From Candidatus Omnitrophica bacterium CG11_big_fil_rev_8_21_14_0_20_41_12 (GTDB taxonomy: Bacteria > Omnitrophota > Gorgyraeia > Gygaellales > Profunditerraquicolaceae): 64,000 nucleotides of DNA. Location of the stretch: assembly GCA_002796135.1 (NCBI GenBank), contig PCWB01000027.1:1724-65723 (forward strand). The letters are read 5' to 3'. Numbering within the stretch: position 1 is the first letter of the stretch; each line of letters begins with the position of its first letter. A model generated the notes under the pieces. It was not told where the DNA came from. It worked only from the letters and a program-made list of their open reading frames with translations, and searched no databases. Below, piece by piece: positions 19,116 to 56,087 of this stretch. A program made the position numbers and the translations under genes.

Positions 19116-21898
19116 TTAACTTCCCCCTTCACTACCAGAAGGCAATTATCACAAATTAAAGGATGCTCTTGATCCTTACCTACCTCTAAAGAATAATTCC
19201 AGCAACGCAGGCATTTAGTTCCGCTTGCTTTGCCGACTTTGATAGAGAGCTCCTCGCAATTTCCCTTCTCCAGAGTGATCTCAATCTGTGAAACCTTAAA
19301 AATCTCACAGAGCTCAACTCTAAAGCTTTGTAAGAATGTATACCGTTCCTGGTCTTTTGTCAATATATTTATTTGCGCGTCAAAGGAGCTGCCGATGCTA
19401 CCGGCAGAGCGCATCTCTTCCAAAGCTTTTGCCGCAACCGGGATCAAATCAATGACCGGTTGAAGCTTGCTTTCCAAGAGCCTATCCTCCTGGCTGAAAA
19501 CATATGGCTTTGGCCAATCCAGAAGATGCACGCTTATAAATTGAGACTGATCTTTTTCTTTGGGCATATTCTGCCAGATCTCCTCAGCGGTAAAAACTAA
19601 AATCGGAGAGATAATCCTCACTAAAGAATTAAGCACTTCATATAATGCGGTTTGGGCTGCTCTCCTCTCTGGCGATGCAGCAGCGCAAGTATAGAGCCTG
19701 CCTTTAGCCATATCCAGATAATACATCGAGAGGTCTTCATTACAAAAATCATAAATTAATTTATAAGCCTTTTGAAACTGAAAATCCTCGTAAGCCTTAT
19801 CAACCGCAAGGCATAAGGAATCCAGGCGCAAAAGTATCCATTTATCAATTCTTCGAAAATCTTTATCCCCTGCTTTATGAATATCCGGATTATAATCATA
19901 CAAATTACTTAAAATAAAACGCGCGGTATTTCTTATCTTGCGATACGCTTCGGATAAGCGGGTTAAAATCACCGCCGAGATGCGAATATCTTCATTGTAA
20001 TCGCTGGAAGCAACCCACATCCTTAAAATATCAGCGCCGTAATCTTTAATGATCTCAAAAGGCGAAATAACATTGCCGGCTGATTTTGACATTTTCCGCC
20101 CCGACCCATCGACTACAAAACCATGGGTAAGCACATTCTTAAACGGCGCCAGCTCCTCTACACACACCGAAGAAATAAGCGATGACTGGAACCATCCGCG
20201 ATGCTGATCCGAACCCTCAAGATAAAGGCTAGCAGGAAACTCCAATTCTTTTCTTTTCTTTAATACCGCCTGCGCGCTTACCCCGGAATCAAACCAGACA
20301 TCCAGAATATCGGCGCCTTTGGAAAAATTCTTACCTTTACAATGCGGACAGCTTACATTGCCTTCGAGAAAATTCTCAATCGGCTGTTCAAGCCAACAAT
20401 CCGTACCGGTTTTTACGCTTTGACAGGCAAAATTCCTAATTACTTGAGTTAAGAGAAATTCTTCTTTGCAATCATTACAGATTAAAGCCGGGATCGGTAC
20501 CCCCCAATATCTCTGACGGGATAAGCACCAATCCGGACGCATGGCCACCATCGCCAAAATCCTCTCCTGCCCTGAGGCAGGCACCCATTTTACGTTGCTG
20601 CGAATTATCTCTTGTAATTTATTCCTTAAATCCTTATGCTCCATATTTAAAAACCATTGTTTTGTTGCTCTAAAAATTACCGGATTTTTGCAACGCCAAC
20701 AATGTGGATACGAATGCCGGATATCGGAATGAAACAACAAATTGCCGGATTTTTCTAATTTTTCAAGGATCGGCTTATTGGCTTCATAAACAGGCAGCCC
20801 CTTGAATTCTCCACAGCTGGAATCAAAAATACCTTTGGCATCAACCGGCATGATCATCGGCAGCTTATATTTGATCCCCACAAAATAATCATCATTTCCG
20901 TGGCCGGGAGCAATATGCACTAAACCGGTACCATCCTCAGCCGAAACATAATCAGCTAAAACCAACTTCCCATCTCTTGACAAAAAAGGATGCGTATAGA
21001 TCAATCCCTCCAATGCCTTTCCACTAAATTCCTTAATAATCGCATGTTCCGTAATACCGCAATTAGTTAAGAAACTAGCTAGTAAATCTTTGGCAATGAT
21101 AAAATTACCTTTTCCGGTTTTAATATAAAGATAGGTAAACTGCGGGTGTGCGGCTACGGCAACATTAGCCAATAGCGTCCAGGGAGTAGTTGTCCAAATA
21201 ACCAAAAAACTTTCATCCTGAAAATTTTTTTGTGATTTAAGTTTAAATTTTACATAAACTGAAGGCGAACCTTTATCTTCATATTCAACTTCAGCTTCAG
21301 CCAGAGCCGTTTCGCACTTAGAACACCAATTTACCGGCTTTAACCCGTGATACAGGTAACCTTTTTCATTAAGTACGGCTAAACTATTAAGAATGCTCTC
21401 TTCATAATCATGGGTTAAAGTAAGATATGGATTTTCCCAGTCGGCAAACACGCCCAGGCGCTTAAACTGCTCTTTTTGTGTTTCCACAAATTTATTCGCA
21501 TAAACATATGCAGCTTTGCGGAAATCTAATTGAGAAATTTGAGATTTATGAATTTTAAGCTCTTTGAGCAGCTGGTGCTCAATCGGCAGACCATGGCAAT
21601 CCCAGCCGGGAACATAAGCGGATGAAAACCCCCGCAAAGTTTTGTATTTTACAATAATATCTTTAAGCGTTTTATTTAAAGCATGGCCGATATGGATATT
21701 ACCATTAGCATAAGGCGGGCCATCATGCAAAATATACTTTGGCTTTGAGCTAGATTTTTTACTGATGAGCTGATAAATACCCTGCTCTATCCATTTCTGC
21801 AATGAAAGCGGCTCTCTTCTCGGAAGATCCGCTTTCATTGGAAAATCCGTTTTAGGTAAATTCAGAGTGTCTTTATATCCGGGGTTCTCAGATTTCAT
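19112..21898 (-). CDS. ileS: Isoleucine--tRNA ligase (type 1)
   Basis: DGPPYANG, HIGH, GWDCHGLP, WTTTPWT, KMSKS, C-terminal CLRCW...CDNC zinc finger. Confidence 0.97.
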   Translation of the reverse strand: MKSENPGYKDTLNLPKTDFPMKADLPRREPLSLQKWIEQGIYQLISKKSSSKPKYILHDGPPYANGNIHIGHALNKTLKDIIVKYKTLRGFSSAYVPGWDCHGLPIEHQLLKELKIHKSQISQLDFRKAAYVYANKFVETQKEQFKRLGVFADWENPYLTLTHDYEESILNSLAVLNEKGYLYHGLKPVNWCSKCETALAEAEVEYEDKGSPSVYVKFKLKSQKNFQDESFLVIWTTTPWTLLANVAVAAHPQFTYLYIKTGKGNFIIAKDLLASFLTNCGITEHAIIKEFSGKALEGLIYTHPFLSRDGKLVLADYVSAEDGTGLVHIAPGHGNDDYFVGIKYKLPMIMPVDAKGIFDSSCGEFKGLPVYEANKPILEKLEKSGNLLFHSDIRHSYPHCWRCKNPVIFRATKQWFLNMEHKDLRNKLQEIIRSNVKWVPASGQERILAMVAMRPDWCLSRQRYWGVPIPALICNDCKEEFLLTQVIRNFACQSVKTGTDCWLEQPIENFLEGNVSCPHCKGKNFSKGADILDVWFDSGVSAQAVLKKRKELEFPASLYLEGSDQHRGWFQSSLISSVCVEELAPFKNVLTHGFVVDGSGRKMSKSAGNVISPFEIIKDYGADILRMWVASSDYNEDIRISAVILTRLSEAYRKIRNTARFILSNLYDYNPDIHKAGDKDFRRIDKWILLRLDSLCLAVDKAYEDFQFQKAYKLIYDFCNEDLSMYYLDMAKGRLYTCAAASPERRAAQTALYEVLNSLVRIISPILVFTAEEIWQNMPKEKDQSQFISVHLLDWPKPYVFSQEDRLLESKLQPVIDLIPVAAKALEEMRSAGSIGSSFDAQINILTKDQERYTFLQSFRVELCEIFKVSQIEITLEKGNCEELSIKVGKASGTKCLRCWNYSLEVGKDQEHPLICDNCLLVVKGEVK

Positions 21899-22755
21899 TT
21901 TACATATTTACCGATAATTATACCTAAATTCTTCTTAATTCTAGAGGGGATAAGTTTTTTATCTGTAACGATTGCGAATTTTAATGCATTTTGGCAACTA
22001 CATTTGCGTTCAGGCTTCAATTCTTTGATCACTTTAGAAATTATTTTTTTAGCATTATCAACATTTTTCTGCAAATTACTCATTACCATCTCTAAAGTTA
22101 CCGACCCATGCTCCGGATACCAACAGTCATAATCAGTAATGCAGGCAAGGGTAGCATAACAAATCTCAGCTTCACGGCAAAGCCTGGCTTCAGCTAAATT
22201 GGTCATTCCGATTACATCCATACCCCAGGAACGATAAAGCTTACTCTCGGCAAGAGTGGAAAATTGCGGGCCCTCCATATTAATATAAGTTCCGCTTTTA
22301 TGCATATTTAAATTTAATGACTTACCGGCTGTATAAATATTAGCGCAAAGCTCATGACATACCGGATGGCTAAAAACTATGTGGCTGACAATACCTTGAT
22401 CAAAAAAAGTCATATCGCGGCCGTGATTTGTACGATCTACAAACTGATCCACCACTACAAAATCCAGGGGCTTCATTTCTTCTTTCAGGCTTCCGCAGGC
22501 AGTTACCGAAATAATCCGCTCCACCCCTAATTTTTTCATCGCAAAAATATTAGCCCGGTAATTTATTTGGCTGGGCGAAATACGATGACCTACTCCATGG
22601 CGAGGAAGAAAAACTACTTCTTTATCTTCTAATTTTCCGAGAGTAAATTTATCCGAAGGATTTCCAAAAGGGGTCTTGACCGCTACCTTCTTGATTACCT
22701 CCATCCCTTCGATTTTATATAAACCACTTCCTCCGATAATTCCGATTTTTAACAT
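21895..22755 (-). CDS. mtnP: S-methyl-5'-thioadenosine phosphorylase
   Basis: GIIGGSG, PRHG, YRANI, EGPQFST, GMT, TDYDCW. Confidence 0.92.
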   Translation of the reverse strand: MLKIGIIGGSGLYKIEGMEVIKKVAVKTPFGNPSDKFTLGKLEDKEVVFLPRHGVGHRISPSQINYRANIFAMKKLGVERIISVTACGSLKEEMKPLDFVVVDQFVDRTNHGRDMTFFDQGIVSHIVFSHPVCHELCANIYTAGKSLNLNMHKSGTYINMEGPQFSTLAESKLYRSWGMDVIGMTNLAEARLCREAEICYATLACITDYDCWYPEHGSVTLEMVMSNLQKNVDNAKKIISKVIKELKPERKCSCQNALKFAIVTDKKLIPSRIKKNLGIIIGKYVK

Positions 22756-22756
22756 A

Positions 22757-23611
22757 TTAAGCTCCCTGTCTGCCGGTAGGCAGGCTTTGCCCTAATTCAT
22801 CCGCTCGTTCTTTAGCTTTTTTCACTGCTTCATCCAGAGTCCCGCCTGCTTCTAATACTTCCAGGCCGGCTTGAGTAGTTCCTCCTTTTGAAGCAACCAT
22901 TTTGATTATATCTTCGCACGATAAATTCTTCTGGATCAACATAGCAATGATACCGTCAACAGTGCCTTGTGATAAAACCTTAGCCTCCCCACGGTCAAAA
23001 CCAAGATTCACCGCAGCATCGGCTAACATTTTAATAAACTCCTCCCGTTTATTTTGCGCATTAGCTTTAGCTTTGATATAATAGCAGAAAAAAGCCGGGC
23101 CGCTTCCTGAAATTGCCGTTGCGGCATTGATCATCTCTTCATTATCCACCGCCAACTCTAAACCGAAATAACTGAATATCTGCCAGGCTAATTGCCAGTC
23201 TGAATTAAACTCTAATGCGGTAGCATTTTTGCCCTTGAATAAAACAGATACTCCTTGATTGATTTGAGCCGGCATATTCGGCATAACCCTGATGATGCGT
23301 GTTTCTTCACCTAAGCGGCTCTTGATGTAGCCAGTAGTAATACCGGCGGCAATAGTAACGATTAATTTATCTTGCGTAAAAGACTTGATCTCATTTAGCA
23401 GAACATCAAAATCTTGCGGCTTGACCGCTAAAATAATAATTTCGGATTGTTTAACTAAATCAGCAGGATTATCGGCAACAGCTATATTTTTTAAGCCTGA
23501 GACTTTATTCTTATCTTTATCAAAAACACAGACCGTATAGTTCTCTCTTATGCGTTCTGCGATCGTCTTGCCCATATTTCCATAACCAATAATACCGATT
23601 TTTTCCATCAT
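22757..23611 (-). CDS. proC: Pyrroline-5-carboxylate reductase
   Basis: GYGNMG, LAVKPQ, RVMPN, SGSGPA, VASKGGTT. Confidence 0.92.
   Translation of the reverse strand: MMEKIGIIGYGNMGKTIAERIRENYTVCVFDKDKNKVSGLKNIAVADNPADLVKQSEIIILAVKPQDFDVLLNEIKSFTQDKLIVTIAAGITTGYIKSRLGEETRIIRVMPNMPAQINQGVSVLFKGKNATALEFNSDWQLAWQIFSYFGLELAVDNEEMINAATAISGSGPAFFCYYIKAKANAQNKREEFIKMLADAAVNLGFDRGEAKVLSQGTVDGIIAMLIQKNLSCEDIIKMVASKGGTTQAGLEVLEAGGTLDEAVKKAKERADELGQSLPTGRQGA
22765..22784. repeat. 20-bp palindromic element CCTGTCTGCCGGTAGGCAGG inside the proC 3' end
   Basis: Imperfect palindrome (two G-T pairs); encodes the LPTGRQG tail of ProC. Confidence 0.65.
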
Positions 23612-23653
23612 TTCCCCTCTCCCGCAATTATGGCGTTATATTTCAATGTGGAA

Positions 23654-23685
23654 TTCCCGCCTGATTCTAAAATTACTGGCGGGAA
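23654..23685. repeat. Inverted repeat TTCCCGCC-16nt-GGCGGGAA spanning the yggS stop
   Basis: Perfect 8-bp stem; supplies the C-terminal SRQ of YggS. Confidence 0.5.
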
Positions 23686-24329
23686 AATATCGCTCTACCT
23701 AACCTTATAATATCAGCGCCTTCTGCAATAGCCACCTCGAAATCATCGCTCATCCCCATCGAAAGCAGCCATTCAGAATTTAATTTATCACGCAATTGCC
23801 TAAGCTCTGAGAAATACGGTCGCGCTGCTTCAACGTCACTCACAATAGGAGCAATGGTCATTAAACCTTTGATTCTTACATTCTTTAGCTTTTTTATTTC
23901 TGACCAAACTTCAGATAAATCCTGCAAGGCAAATCCGGATTTTGAAGCTTCTCCTGAAGTTTTGATCTCTAAAAGAATACCCTGAACTTTATTGATCTTT
24001 AAAGCCTGCTTATTAATCTCTTGCGCCAAACTAACGCTATCAACAGAATGAATAAGATCGAATATCTTTACTGCCTCTTTTACTTTATTCGACTGCAGGT
24101 GGCCGATCATATGCCAAGTTACTCCGGATATCTGGCTATACTTTTCCAAGGCCTCCTGGACTCTGCTTTCGCCGATATGCTTTAAACCTAAACTAACAGC
24201 CTCTAAAATCTGAGCGACCGTCCTGCCCTTAGTCACACAAACTAACGTAACCTTATCAGGATCAGTCTTGACCTTCCCACAAACCTGTTCAATCCTGTGT
24301 TTAACTCTGCTTATGTTCTCTTTAATCAT
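23673..24329 (-). CDS. yggS: PLP homeostasis protein YggS/PipY
   Basis: VTK, GESRVQE, WHMIGHLQSNK, IHSVD, GLMT, LSMGMSDD, RLGRAIF. Start placed at ATG 24329. Confidence 0.93.
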   Translation of the reverse strand: MIKENISRVKHRIEQVCGKVKTDPDKVTLVCVTKGRTVAQILEAVSLGLKHIGESRVQEALEKYSQISGVTWHMIGHLQSNKVKEAVKIFDLIHSVDSVSLAQEINKQALKINKVQGILLEIKTSGEASKSGFALQDLSEVWSEIKKLKNVRIKGLMTIAPIVSDVEAARPYFSELRQLRDKLNSEWLLSMGMSDDFEVAIAEGADIIRLGRAIFSRQ

Positions 24330-24338
24330 AGATAATAT

Positions 24339-24366
24339 ATTATACACAATAACCCACGAGGGTCAA
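24339..24366 (-). promoter_or_regulatory. sigma70 promoter of the yggS operon (near-leaderless transcript)
   Basis: TTGACC (24366-24361), 16-bp spacer, TATAAT (24344-24339) with TG extension. Confidence 0.6.
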
Positions 24367-24411
24367 ATACATAAAAGAACAAAACGGTAAACGTTAATTC
24401 GAATTTTTGAA

Positions 24412-24894
24412 TTAATTAGTTTTTGGGGATTCAACGGTGAGTTTTTTATAAGCACCTTCTGTATCAGAATAAGCGTACATCCATACGCAACAATGTAGAA
24501 GCTTTCTTGCCTGAGAAAAAACCATTTTCCATTGGCCAAAGATCGGATTTTTAACTTTAAAATGTAATGCTTTTCCTAATCCTTCAAGCGGACCGGAAGC
24601 ACGCTTATAAGGATATAAATTACCTTTTGGATCTATCAATTTTACATCTACTAGCTCACAATCAACATACCAACCCACAAAATCATCTACATCATAGATT
24701 TCGAACGTTACAGTAACTATAGTGTTTGGTAATACGTCAAAAAACTCGGTAGCTCGGGTTTGGAACTCTTTATAATCTTTTGGAGGCTTATGTTCATTAT
24801 CTTCACCAAAAGAGACATAACATCCTGCCAGGATTAAAATTACTAATATAATAATTCCTTGTTTAATCATAAACTTTTGCTTTCTCTTTTCCAT
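24412..24894 (-). CDS. Hypothetical exported or lipoprotein-like protein, possible PPC-like beta-sandwich
   Basis: Basic N-terminus, hydrophobic stretch and LAGC; LIDPKG...NPIFGQW pattern; AT-rich; AGGAAGAGGG upstream. Confidence 0.6.
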   Translation of the reverse strand: MEKRKQKFMIKQGIIILVILILAGCYVSFGEDNEHKPPKDYKEFQTRATEFFDVLPNTIVTVTFEIYDVDDFVGWYVDCELVDVKLIDPKGNLYPYKRASGPLEGLGKALHFKVKNPIFGQWKMVFSQARKLLHCCVWMYAYSDTEGAYKKLTVESPKTN

Positions 24895-25000
24895 CCCTCT
24901 TCCTATTTTTTATTTCCTTTCCACTGCTTTCAGTACTATAAAAATACGTTGCTAATTTATATTACTATACCACAAATCCTAAGATTTTAAAAAATTAATA

Positions 25001-25162
25001 GCGTCTGGCTGGGCTGTGTTTTCGAGGGACGTGGAGGCAAGGAGCGGGCACGATTCACCGGCTATTGATACTCAATGAAAGCGACGCCAGCCGATCCGAG
25101 CGCAGTTACGGCACGCCGAGCCGTAACAAGCGTTCCCGAGAAAACACAGACAAAACAGATGC
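25001..25162. other. ~160-nt GC-rich folded element (ncRNA or MITE-like palindromic element)
   Basis: Terminal stems GCGTCTG/CAGATGC, CTGTGTTTTC/GAAAACACAG and GGGACG/CGTTCCC; internal GTTACGGC/GCCGTAAC hairpin; ~58% GC by manual count. Confidence 0.6.
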
Positions 25163-25164
25163 GT

Positions 25165-25208
25165 ACACCCGGTGCTTAATGGTATTGCGCCGGTGTTCCG
25201 CAGGTGCG
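25165..25208. repeat. Two-hairpin structured repeat, copy A
   Basis: ACACC-C-GGTGC-tta-atgg-tatt-GCGCC-GGTGT-tc-CGC-aggt-GCG, directly after the ftsA stop. Confidence 0.7.
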
Positions 25209-25212
25209 TAAA

Positions 25213-26466
25213 TTAAAAATATTCCTGATAAACTTCTTTGCAGCGGTTAATTACTTTGAAAAGCAGGTTCTTGGCGGGCTTTACTATTGCAAGATTTCCT
25301 ATTGTTTTACCTTCCAGGTCTTCACAGATCATTCCCAGACAGGTCAGATAAGTCAAATATTTCTGTCCGGATAGATCACTATTCTCTTTGGCTAACGCTG
25401 CAATCTCCGGATTATGGATCCTGCCGATACTTACGGGAATGCCCGTCACAGTCTCCATCATCTCAATAAATCCGTCAGTAAGCAGGGTTTTACCGACCAT
25501 AATAAAATTATCAACTTCATGCAATGCCACTTTTCTCTCCACAACCTCTTTAATCTGCGAACAGATCAGGCGTCCGAAGTTAGTGGCCATCTGCACTACT
25601 TCGCGCTGCCTGATCGGCTTATAAAATTCATCTTTCTTAACTAAAATTTCTTTATTTTCCGGAATACTGCTTGCATCCGCAATAATTCCATAGGAACGCT
25701 TGATATCTTCGGCCAGCTCAAAATTAATTTTCAATCCTTCGGAAAGCTGTTCGGTCATGCTGTTGCCGCCTAAGGGCAGGATCTGAATATCCTGCAGAAG
25801 TCCGTCTTTAAATATAAGCAACTCCGTAACATCGCTACCTACATCGCAAAATACGCTTAACCCTTTCTTTTCTTTACTACCCAGCACCGCCTTACTGGTA
25901 GCTAGCCCTGAAAAAGAAAGACTTCTGATTTCGCATCCGCATTGGCTTACAGCGCGGCTTAAACTTTGCAAAGAGGAAAGCCTAGCACAAACTAAATATA
26001 AATCTACCTCCAGCCTGTGGCTGTATAAACCGATCGGATTAATAACATTGCTTTTAGAATCTATAGAATAACTGGACGGAATCACATGAATTATTTCATC
26101 TTCTAAGCTTGAGCCCAGGATACGCGCCTGTTCATTAGCAGAGGCTATATCGGTTGAAGTAACTACTTTATTACCGCGCTCAGCAAGCGGAATAATCGCA
26201 TGGCTATGTTTAGTGGAGATATCTTTGCCGGAAAAATTAGTATGGATAAATTTTATCTTTAATCCGGATTTGGCCCGCAGGCTTTTGATGATCTTACCCA
26301 GACAAACAACCAGTTGCGTAGCGTCGACGATAACTCCTTCTTTTACTCCGCTAGAAGGCAGGCAATCAAAAAAGATATCCTCAATACGATTCTTCTTTAT
26401 TTTTGCCAATGAAGCAGAAATTTTATTTGAACCTATGTCAATTGCGCAGATATAATTATTTAGCAT
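25213..26466 (-). CDS. ftsA: Cell division protein FtsA (divergent)
   Basis: AIDIGSNKI, SSGVKEGVIVD, IIHVIP..YSID, NPIG, C-terminal amphipathic helix; follows ftsQ. Confidence 0.9.
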   Translation of the reverse strand: MLNNYICAIDIGSNKISASLAKIKKNRIEDIFFDCLPSSGVKEGVIVDATQLVVCLGKIIKSLRAKSGLKIKFIHTNFSGKDISTKHSHAIIPLAERGNKVVTSTDIASANEQARILGSSLEDEIIHVIPSSYSIDSKSNVINPIGLYSHRLEVDLYLVCARLSSLQSLSRAVSQCGCEIRSLSFSGLATSKAVLGSKEKKGLSVFCDVGSDVTELLIFKDGLLQDIQILPLGGNSMTEQLSEGLKINFELAEDIKRSYGIIADASSIPENKEILVKKDEFYKPIRQREVVQMATNFGRLICSQIKEVVERKVALHEVDNFIMVGKTLLTDGFIEMMETVTGIPVSIGRIHNPEIAALAKENSDLSGQKYLTYLTCLGMICEDLEGKTIGNLAIVKPAKNLLFKVINRCKEVYQEYF

Positions 26467-27244
26467 TATTTAGCTTAATTACCGCCTCCTTAAACCTTAA
26501 ATCAATATATTTAATATTTCCCCAATCCTTATGAGCCTGTATGACTAGTCCACCGAGAATCATCATCTTGCCTCTGATATTAGTCTCTCCGGTACGCACC
26601 TCGAACCCAGATCCCGGTAACGGAGCAGCTGGCTTTTTATAATCAACGATCAGCTTGGACAAAAGAACAAAAAAACCTGCGCTGGAAAGATCTCTCACAT
26701 CAACGCTTTTTAAAGTAAAATCACGAAATGATTTGTTGGCGTTAAATTCTTTTATAATACTTATGGCCAGATCAAGCTCCAGTCTCTTATATTTTGTCCC
26801 CGGCTTAGGAGCAAATATCTTTGTCTCTAAGCCATAGATTACCGGTAGCCCGGATTCCTCGTCAGTTGAATCCGAATAAAACAATACACCTTGCTCATCA
26901 ATTACAAAATTCCGATAGAATTTAACTAAGGCCAGCGGCTTGCGTTTTAAAAAATCAATGAATATACAATTGGGAAATACTCTGGTAAATCTTACTTTAC
27001 GGCAATCCGGGCACCCCGCAGCAACCTGGCGCGATTGGACGCCTAAATCTAAACTGAAAATATTCCTTCCCTTTAGATAATCAAATGACGCATCGGAATT
27101 TCTAACGATAACCTGCTTAACCGAAAAAAATTCCGAAGTCGTCAATACCTTCCAAATATATCCTATTAAAAAAGAGATAGCAAGTGAAATTATCGCCAGA
27201 GTAATAATAATTTTTACGGGTAGATTAAATCTTCTTTTTCTCAT
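26456..27244 (-). CDS. ftsQ: Cell division protein FtsQ/DivIB
   Basis: TM helix, POTRA-like region (FSVKQVIV...GRNIFSLDL...RVFPN), YIDLRF. Confidence 0.85.
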   Translation of the reverse strand: MRKRRFNLPVKIIITLAIISLAISFLIGYIWKVLTTSEFFSVKQVIVRNSDASFDYLKGRNIFSLDLGVQSRQVAAGCPDCRKVRFTRVFPNCIFIDFLKRKPLALVKFYRNFVIDEQGVLFYSDSTDEESGLPVIYGLETKIFAPKPGTKYKRLELDLAISIIKEFNANKSFRDFTLKSVDVRDLSSAGFFVLLSKLIVDYKKPAAPLPGSGFEVRTGETNIRGKMMILGGLVIQAHKDWGNIKYIDLRFKEAVIKLNNAK

Positions 27245-54594: not shown

Positions 54595-55803
54595 TTAGAG
54601 ATCTAGATAATGCCCTAGTTTCTCTTTTTTTGTTTTTAAATATTTATAATTCTGAGCGCCGGGTTTAATCTCTAACGATATGCGCTCGGCAACCTCTAAG
54701 CCATAACCTTCTAAACCTACGATCTTACGCGGATTATTCGTTAATAACTTTATTTTTTTAACTCCCAAATCAACCAGGATCTGAGCTCCGATGCCGTAAT
54801 CACGCAAATCAGCTTTATGCCCCAAGGCTTCATTGGCCTGAACAGTATCCATTCCCTGATCCTGAAGATTATACGCACGTATCTTTTCAACTAAGCCGAT
54901 ACCCCGGCCCTCCTGATTCATATAAAGGATTATGCCTTTTTTCTCGCCTCCGATGATCTCCATCGCTTTTTCTAATTGATGCCCGCAATCACAGCGTAGC
55001 GAACCAAAGACATCTCCGGTTAAACACTCCGAATGAACGCGCACCAATATTGACTCATCCGACCAGCTGCCCATACACAAAGCAATATGCGTTTGGGCGT
55101 TGGTTTTGTCGCGGTAAATAATTAATTTAAATTCTCCGAATTTTGTAGGTAATATTGTCTGAACCACTACTTCGACTAATTTTTCCCTCCTGCGGCGGTA
55201 TTCGATCAGGCTGGCAATCGAACAAATTTTTAAAGCGTGCTTTTTAGAAAATTCCAGAAGTTGCGGCAGGCGAGCCATTGAACCATCGTCATTCATAATC
55301 TCGCAAATTACTCCCGCCGAATAAAGCCCACAAAGACGCATTAAATCCAGGCTTGCCTCAGTATGCCCGGCGCGCACCAATACTCCACCGAGGCGCGAGC
55401 GTAGAGGAAAAACATGCCCCGGACGAATTAAGTCCTCAGGCTTGGTTTTAAGATTAGTTAAGATTTCAATTGTCTTGGCCCGATCAGCCGCAGAGATCCC
55501 CGTGCTTATCGAGCGCGCCGCATCAACCGAGATCATCCAGGCAGTCTTAAAAGGATCCTCCTTAGTCGCCGCCAGAGTATTTTTAAGCATTGGATCAAGC
55601 TCCAAAAAACGCAACCTCTCCTCTTCCATCGGAACACAGATCAGCCCCCGGCCGAATTTAGCCATAAAGTTTATATCTTCCGGCTTGGCACTTGAGGCAG
55701 CCATGATTAAATCACCTTCATTTTCGCGGTCTTCATCATCAACCACGATAACCATTTTGCCTGCTTTTAAATCTTCTAAAATTTCCGGTATTGAATTAAA
55801 CAT
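54595..55803 (-). CDS. ribBA: Bifunctional DHBP synthase / GTP cyclohydrolase II
   Basis: [33 protein letters not shown]...RCDC, QEGRGIG, TNNP. Confidence 0.97.
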
Positions 55804-55845: not shown

Positions 55846-55891
55846 ATCGTAATTTTAATCTTCTTCCATCTGGACTTTCTCATACGCTTTT

Positions 55892-55936
55892 ACACCCCGC
55901 GTTTATAAGATATTACGCGGGTGTTCGTTCGTACGA
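55892..55936. repeat. Two-hairpin structured repeat, copy B (inside the riboswitch)
   Basis: ACACC-C-CGCGT-tta-taaga-tatt-ACGCG-GGTGT-TCGT-tcgt-ACGA. Confidence 0.72.
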
Positions 55937-55983
55937 ACCATCGGCCCTGGAATCTCACCAGATCTGCCTAGCACATTGTTTAA

Positions 55984-56027
55984 GCACCCAGCGCTAAATT
56001 GCATTGCGCTGGTGCCTGCTCGTGCAG
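55984..56027. repeat. Two-hairpin structured repeat, copy C (inside the riboswitch)
   Basis: GCACC-C-AGCGC-taa-attg-catt-GCGCT-GGTGC-CTGC-tcgt-GCAG. Confidence 0.72.
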
Positions 56028-56087
56028 GGCTCGCGGGCTAAACCGCCGGTAAGGAATTTCACCTTGCCCTAAAGATTAATTGTTAGT

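Follow-up and report, generated by a model that had tools for sequence, protein, structure and literature searches.

In the account that PMC3479197 gives of them, Y1 enzymes bind imperfect hairpins of single-stranded DNA in which a bulge is required, and TnpA-REP requires both the bulge and a 5' tetranucleotide. REPINs, in the corresponding part of PMC3116915, are described as accumulating compensatory changes, as nesting and as forming tandem clusters, while the CGTC repeats treated in PMC3733652 are said there to have no dedicated transposase. For IS608, PMC5027513 describes insertion on the 3' side of a fixed target sequence, with the lagging-strand template preferred, and PMC3049150 mentions one BOX element situated within a still-working riboswitch leader of Streptococcus pneumoniae.

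The window analyzed here, a stretch of 64,000 nucleotides from an Omnitrophota genome, holds four instances (A to D) of a two-hairpin unit. These are copies of an Omnitrophota repeat of about 45 bases, and we regard it as fairly probable that the repeat is mobile but non-autonomous, a nuclease acting in trans, probably of HUH type, copying it in the form of folded single-stranded DNA; the enzyme, its class, the single-stranded intermediate and the source of compensation are what we infer. With REP/BIME elements and the REPINs that accompany RAYTs, as portrayed in the relevant parts of PMC3116915, PMC3479197 and PMC3733652, the repeat shares the form of short extragenic imperfect hairpins present in tens of copies per genome, as well as compensatory stem changes, nesting, tandem clusters and lineage-restricted persistence; a bulge conserved within an imperfect hairpin and dispersed extragenic copies are both found here. 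It nevertheless departs from them in that the unit is asymmetric, one long and one short hairpin in fixed order instead of the inverted doublet of REPINs, in that no GTAG or CGTC tag stands at the hairpin foot, and in that no flanked RAYT was found, the RAYTs here having other repeats. Moreover, whereas REPs are placed downstream of coding regions in the description of PMC3733652, this repeat lies mostly before ribosome-binding sites.

Other systems offer partial parallels. Non-autonomous IS200/IS605 derivatives, moved by Y1 'peel and paste' in the terms of PMC5027513, likewise possess hairpins at both ends, an unpaired base and polar insertion and, as far as that description goes, produce no target-site duplication; unlike what it reports for IS200/IS605, the present repeat has no fixed 4-5 base target on its 5' side and shows no clear replication-strand rule in the complete genome G216, and the IS200-type TnpA loci checked are without it. 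Classical MITEs differ in that here the inverted repeat is sub-terminal, with the small hairpin outside it, and no target-site duplication above permutation is seen; an IS91-like rolling-circle element is set apart by the lack of a Y2 transposase with matching ends, Y2 genes occurring in 2/48 genomes of the genus. BOX, RUP and SPRITE of S. pneumoniae resemble it as modular, self-inserting small repeats, but BOX and RUP are credited in the same source (PMC3049150) with terminal inverted repeats, target duplications and a larger size. The repeat has, finally, the covarying secondary structure upstream of genes that is typical of the cis-regulatory RNA motifs of Rfam, from which it differs by occurring in both orientations, beside unrelated genes, patchily among orthologues and with no Rfam match.

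The repeat unit and its copies in the window

The genes mreB, mreC, ftsA and ribBA and the FMN riboswitch are all on the minus strand and copies A to D all on the plus strand, so that each copy is antisense to the transcript of its host. Copy A (25165..25208), a bulged long hairpin followed by a small one, lies 5 bases past the stop of ftsA, whose ORF (25213..26466, minus strand) has that stop facing it. Copies B (55892..55936) and C (55984..56027) occupy the variable loops of the last and the third stem, presumably P6 and P3, of an FMN riboswitch (55854..56080, minus strand) under which stands ribBA, the gene for DHBP synthase/GTP cyclohydrolase II (54595..55803, minus strand); the core of the riboswitch is intact despite both inserts and scores 90.4 bits with the Rfam model, whose gathering cut-off is 66.2. 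Copy D (13142..13187) is situated in the mreB-mreC spacer and faces the stop of the mreB ORF (13209..14351, minus strand); it is followed on the plus strand by a second small hairpin (13192..13205), likely the leftover of an older copy that received insertion D, since the mreB-spacer copies of relatives end in a small hairpin of the same type. All four strings given in a preliminary description of the window are present as written on the plus strand, and the sequence of copy D was correct, though its start had been set at 13146, four bases inside the true beginning of the outer stem; the shared orientation it noted is real, whereas the RNA sense it implied is reversed, the transcripts being the reverse complement of the written strings.

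Beside copy A, at 25001-25150, stands an unrelated structured repeat, GC-rich and about 150 bases long. A similar one follows ftsA in three relatives, and apparently the same family is multi-copy in genomes G004 and G071. In the same region, at the end of the dcw cluster (24412-26466), no ftsZ follows ftsA, and no member of the tubulin/FtsZ family was detected in any of 5/5 genomes tested, single-contig G216 included, by a search that recovered 13/14 controls.

The unit, of about 45 bases, consists of a stem of 10-11 bp in which a single C is bulged, closed by an AT-rich loop of 11-13 bases that is able to carry cargo, and of a 4-5 bp hairpin that starts directly after the long stem and whose loop of 4-5 bases mostly ends in GT or CT. 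The bulge is C in 188/198 copies and T in 10/198, under a search pattern that admitted only these two bases. Free variation is seen at two long-stem positions and throughout the small stem, and pairing there was counted on 127 copies from a metagenome scan that placed no constraint on the scored positions. The two free long-stem pairs are Watson-Crick in 251 of 254 instances, the others being one G·T and two A·C, and so are 455 of 472 small-stem pairs in the 118/127 copies with at least three of four pairs; in 9/127 the small hairpin is absent. Such scarcity of wobble pairs, whichever strand is read, would be expected from hairpins formed in DNA rather than from RNA helices. In G216 the unit is a module within larger composite repeats (loci L408-L433), and its copies there carry more compensated changes, at positions that are constant in the genus of the window.

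A relaxed descriptor yielded 24 copies in the 1.22-Mb genome against 1 in reversed and complemented controls. Covariance model R1, built from 35 copies with the four of the window among them, recovered 35 copies genome-wide at E≤0.1 and 33 at E≤0.001, A to D alone within the window up to E = 5, and matches in 33/151 genomes of the class. A fixed pattern gave matches in 33/36 other genomes of the genus, with 0 in controls, and in 58/401 genomes of a phylum sample, with 0 control matches in the 401; these fall in 41/59 genomes of the window's family and 6/10 of one other family and are rare elsewhere. The 80 named records listed are mostly Omnitrophota, with a few Planctomycetales/Planctomycetia and one Deltaproteobacteria, and viral contigs and annotated phages and plasmids gave no match to the family. 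The covariation score of alignment A2 was 0.401 against 0.166±0.014 in shuffles, a value reached in 0/500 of them, the control being blind to relatedness, and Rfam, run on the window at E≤1, returned the FMN riboswitch and one tRNA only, leaving the two-hairpin repeat unmatched. The expectations of the preliminary description that a covariance model would find further copies here and in relatives, that the stems covary and that the family is not a described Rfam one are thereby borne out; its statement that the repeat escapes ordinary repeat finders stands as regards the 20 largest of at least 60 direct-repeat families in the window. In the published literature and in 2026 preprints, supplements aside, we found no description of the two-hairpin repeat, which thus apparently has not been described in print, although a large non-coding cluster catalogue in the 2026 preprints could contain it.

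Filled and empty sites, targets and orientation

Empty orthologous sites, which had been proposed as a check on mobility, are present at mreB, ftsA, the FMN riboswitch and other loci. On the 3' side of mreB, copies of differing subfamilies, all antisense, occur in 10/29 relatives and are absent in the others; on the 3' side of ftsA a copy occurs in 0/29, though other repeats occur there. The link to actin-fold genes suggested in the preliminary description consequently looks coincidental, and it was rejected on these counts and on the unrelatedness of the family's neighbors. The 3' spacers of ftsA also receive a number of other repeats, including inverted repeats of the GGGGAC type that resemble those on either side of RAYTs in the genus. 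Thirty FMN riboswitches of relatives were fetched and 25 parsed; as judged by eye, a two-hairpin insert sits in the loop of the second stem in 9/25 and in the last loop in 2/25, with three inserts confirmed by covariance model and all antisense, and the remaining riboswitches have short loops or unrelated hairpins at those sites.

Eight further sites of this genome, each compared with up to 5 relatives, show filled/empty differences, with clean junctions at C8:18390, C38:24156, C38:32601 and C43:88298; at single sites a 2-base overlap would be compatible with the sequences. At C8:18390 the repeat stands directly 5' of a native AAGGAG, with nothing lost and nothing duplicated; at C38:24156 it breaks the last codons of an rpmA-like gene and provides its stop; and at C38:32601 it adjoins the 5' end of a tRNA-Gly, where one relative has a different copy. 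In 2/4 public runs, contigs span the D or the A site with other short spacers and without a copy; assembled contigs of the four runs covering 12000-27000 contained no excision intermediate or clean excision joint. The long loop of a copy can also house another copy, with as many as three levels of nesting, and tandem arrays with a period of 44-49 bases occur. One inner cassette is near-identical in four host copies of this genome, the small hairpins of which differ by compensated pairs, and genome G068 contains many near-identical dispersed copies. Just outside the window, a nested and tandem cluster of three copies (G000:C34:1081-1207), oriented opposite to those of the window, lies upstream of an apparent 16S rRNA gene start.

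Target duplication among 141 copies does not exceed permutation, and the same is true of a three-base AAG duplication. Almost every insertion immediately precedes an A, which in most cases opens the Shine-Dalgarno sequence: A follows the small stem in 105/118 copies, so that the small-hairpin side has a near-constant A, often AAGG, while the bases 5' of the long stem vary and no conserved guide tetranucleotide is seen at the hairpin foot. Of 144 sense clusters, 106 have the end of the small hairpin at a distance of 6-20 bases from a start codon and 91 have the Shine-Dalgarno core at offset 0-1, with a spacing to the upstream stop of 0 to several hundred bases. Where the upstream spacer exceeds 40 bases, 36/62 copies are still within 24 bases of the start codon, which indicates that tight spacers alone do not explain the proximity to start codons. 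The junction bears AAG or AGG in 20 of the 58 copies with no called start nearby, against a background of 9%, and some of these copies probably mark missed starts. In several copies the 3' arm of the small hairpin is itself host sequence, either a Shine-Dalgarno sequence or the 5' end of a tRNA-Gly, suggesting in-place rewriting of the opposite arm. Copies adjoin several tRNA-Gly 5' ends exactly, and at G000:C39:906-1087 a tRNA gene stands between two copies of opposite orientation whose small hairpins face it.

Under a rule by which a Shine-Dalgarno-like flank was scored as sense, 198 distinct copies comprise 158 sense, 22 antisense and 18 unassigned; the mreB-site set adds antisense cases to these. 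The neighbors (106/211 neighboring ORFs scanned) are unrelated housekeeping genes, several ribosomal proteins among them, with no common pathway. The G-rich strand carries 168/198 copies, a count confounded with gene direction, which in this genome runs almost parallel to GC skew; in most of its large contigs at least 90% of coding sequence is on the G-rich strand. In G216, by comparison, 26 loci (30 matches, with four same-cluster duplicates left out) divide evenly, 13 on the leading and 13 on the lagging side, while a copy in G068 matches the orientation of an isolated, oppositely oriented gene. Orientation thus appears to track local sequence more than replichore, and strict replichore orientation is not seen in G216. 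Family-wide, the majority of copies are sense and adjoin a Shine-Dalgarno sequence, in contrast to the four of the window.

Proposed mechanism and competing explanations

The mobile-DNA reading is drawn from the filled and empty sites, nesting, tandem arrays, polarity, lack of duplication and strict Watson-Crick pairing; these observations, together with the near-total lack of wobble, fit a REP/MITE-like DNA element and not a regulator of actin genes or riboswitches. In the mechanism we favor, a trans-acting and probably HUH-type candidate nuclease would read the bulge and the bases of the loop on a single strand of the DNA and would move a folded single-stranded form. Complementarity of the arms might be kept through selection for folding of the DNA intermediate, through arm-to-arm templated repair, or both; the pile-up at Shine-Dalgarno sequences, stop codons, tRNA ends and riboswitch loops might reflect a purine-rich target preference combined with survival only where, in a compact genome, insertion is harmless, and any effect on mRNA would be secondary. 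Counting against this reading are the absence of a mobilizer, a guide tetranucleotide, a strand rule in G216 and an excision intermediate in the contigs. The earlier proposal of a REP-like mobile unit whose structure is kept while its sequence varies is well matched by the empty sites, nesting, arrays, Watson-Crick covariation and lack of an Rfam match. A post-transcriptional regulatory site as the primary role, which the same description had offered instead, sits poorly with the occurrence in both orientations, beside unrelated housekeeping genes and in only some orthologues. That about 80% of copies are sense at ribosome-binding sites and that all FMN inserts are antisense hints, however, at RNA-level selection as well.

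In a more radical form, which we consider unlikely, the copies would represent a new class of 45-base selfish DNA that an undescribed enzyme, encoded elsewhere, directs both to its own loop and to sites of ribosome binding, with the small hairpin rebuilt against the target and the covariation arising from the chemistry of mobilization and not from RNA selection; the idea of a rebuilt small hairpin stems from the copies whose 3' arm is host sequence. The stricter guide-target model, according to which this 3' arm always comes from the target, was rejected, as both arms are missing at the empty FMN and rpmA sites. Quite unlikely, in our estimation, is an RNA cassette serving as 5' stabilizer, processing site or translation element before ribosome-binding sites and kept by selection on mRNA. 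The Shine-Dalgarno core at offset 0-1, the closeness to start codons of copies with long spacers and the many housekeeping neighbors, several of them ribosomal proteins, are what such a cassette would lead one to expect, but A to D are antisense, as is roughly one copy in ten across the family, presence among orthologues is patchy, G·U-type pairs are almost absent, the neighbors have no common pathway, and copies nest and stack.

Spread with no enzyme at all, whereby host recombination, replication slippage and hairpin template switching would duplicate, nest and perfect the repeat, accords with the lack of a linked transposase, a situation paralleled by the CGTC repeats as PMC3733652 presents them; slippage could yield tandem arrays, and the host-derived 3' arm of several small hairpins points to in-place re-templating. 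We nonetheless judge it distinctly improbable, for slippage alone would hardly yield insertions that are precise and polar, at unrelated loci whose empty counterparts are clean, or the many near-identical dispersed copies of G068, and the constancy of the bulge and of certain loop bases implies that a protein reads them. The sub-terminal inverted repeat, the lack of duplication and the target preference, along with the AA or AAG often present at both junctions and between tandem units, could also be those of a recombinase miniature (IS110/IS1111-like or another site-specific system) that integrates by way of a core of 1-2 bases, AA for instance; this appears highly improbable, given that junction matches do not exceed shuffles and that the IS110 transposase found in 2/5 genomes tested was in neither case flanked by the repeat.

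On the mobile-element reading, the unusual polar preference for Shine-Dalgarno sites would point to a harmless landing place in compact genomes. The family is also a warning for the discovery of RNA motifs, in that a mobile DNA hairpin can give strong covariation upstream of genes, and, were the missing enzyme to be found, it would represent a new site-directed system of single-stranded DNA insertion and bear on the means by which REP-like repeats spread when no transposase is linked to them.

Candidate mobilizing enzymes

The co-distributed HUH/RAYT nuclease envisaged in the preliminary description was searched for among the genomes and not found. Y1 genes are present in 45/48 genomes of the genus, most of the Y1 loci listed being flanked by GGGGAC-type or other repeats, and no Y1 clade is common to this genome and G216. 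Among 78 loci encoding Y1, Y2, GIY-YIG or reverse transcriptase proteins (71 of them Y1, a subset of the Y1 genes of the class), a single one has a copy at a distance of up to about 1.5 kb, and this locus is a RAYT with its own, different repeat. Y1/RAYT proteins and the IS200 TnpA were accordingly set aside, as the loci checked are not flanked by the two-hairpin repeat, and likewise Y2/IS91 enzymes, whose rare genes are not flanked by it either. GIY-YIG proteins were dismissed for lack of flanking copies, as were reverse transcriptases, which by ORF and flanks are group II intron-like; the IS110 enzyme was rejected on the grounds given above. A Pfam scan of 106/211 neighboring ORFs, of 93/156 representatives of clusters without a homologue in this genome and of 19 more ORFs revealed, isolated integrases aside, no recurring mobile-DNA enzyme.

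Several elements encountered in the course of this search have features of their own. This genome contains a GIY-YIG gene between its own inverted hairpin repeats (G000:C40:3100-3500), a group II intron-like reverse transcriptase element (G000:C16:1-1300) and an IS110-family transposase (G000:C21:3500-4700), and a clade of unusually long RAYT-like proteins of about 420 residues (L469, L472, L463, L449) has no obvious flanking repeats. A 246-residue ORF at G000:C24:37748-38485, labeled HTH/LAGLIDADG-like by eye and with no Pfam hit, was discarded as a mobilizer because a diverged copy lies near only 2/29 of its homologue loci. It carries a repeat at its ribosome-binding site and extends into an antisense tRNA, and homologues of it occur in 44/120 genomes of the family.
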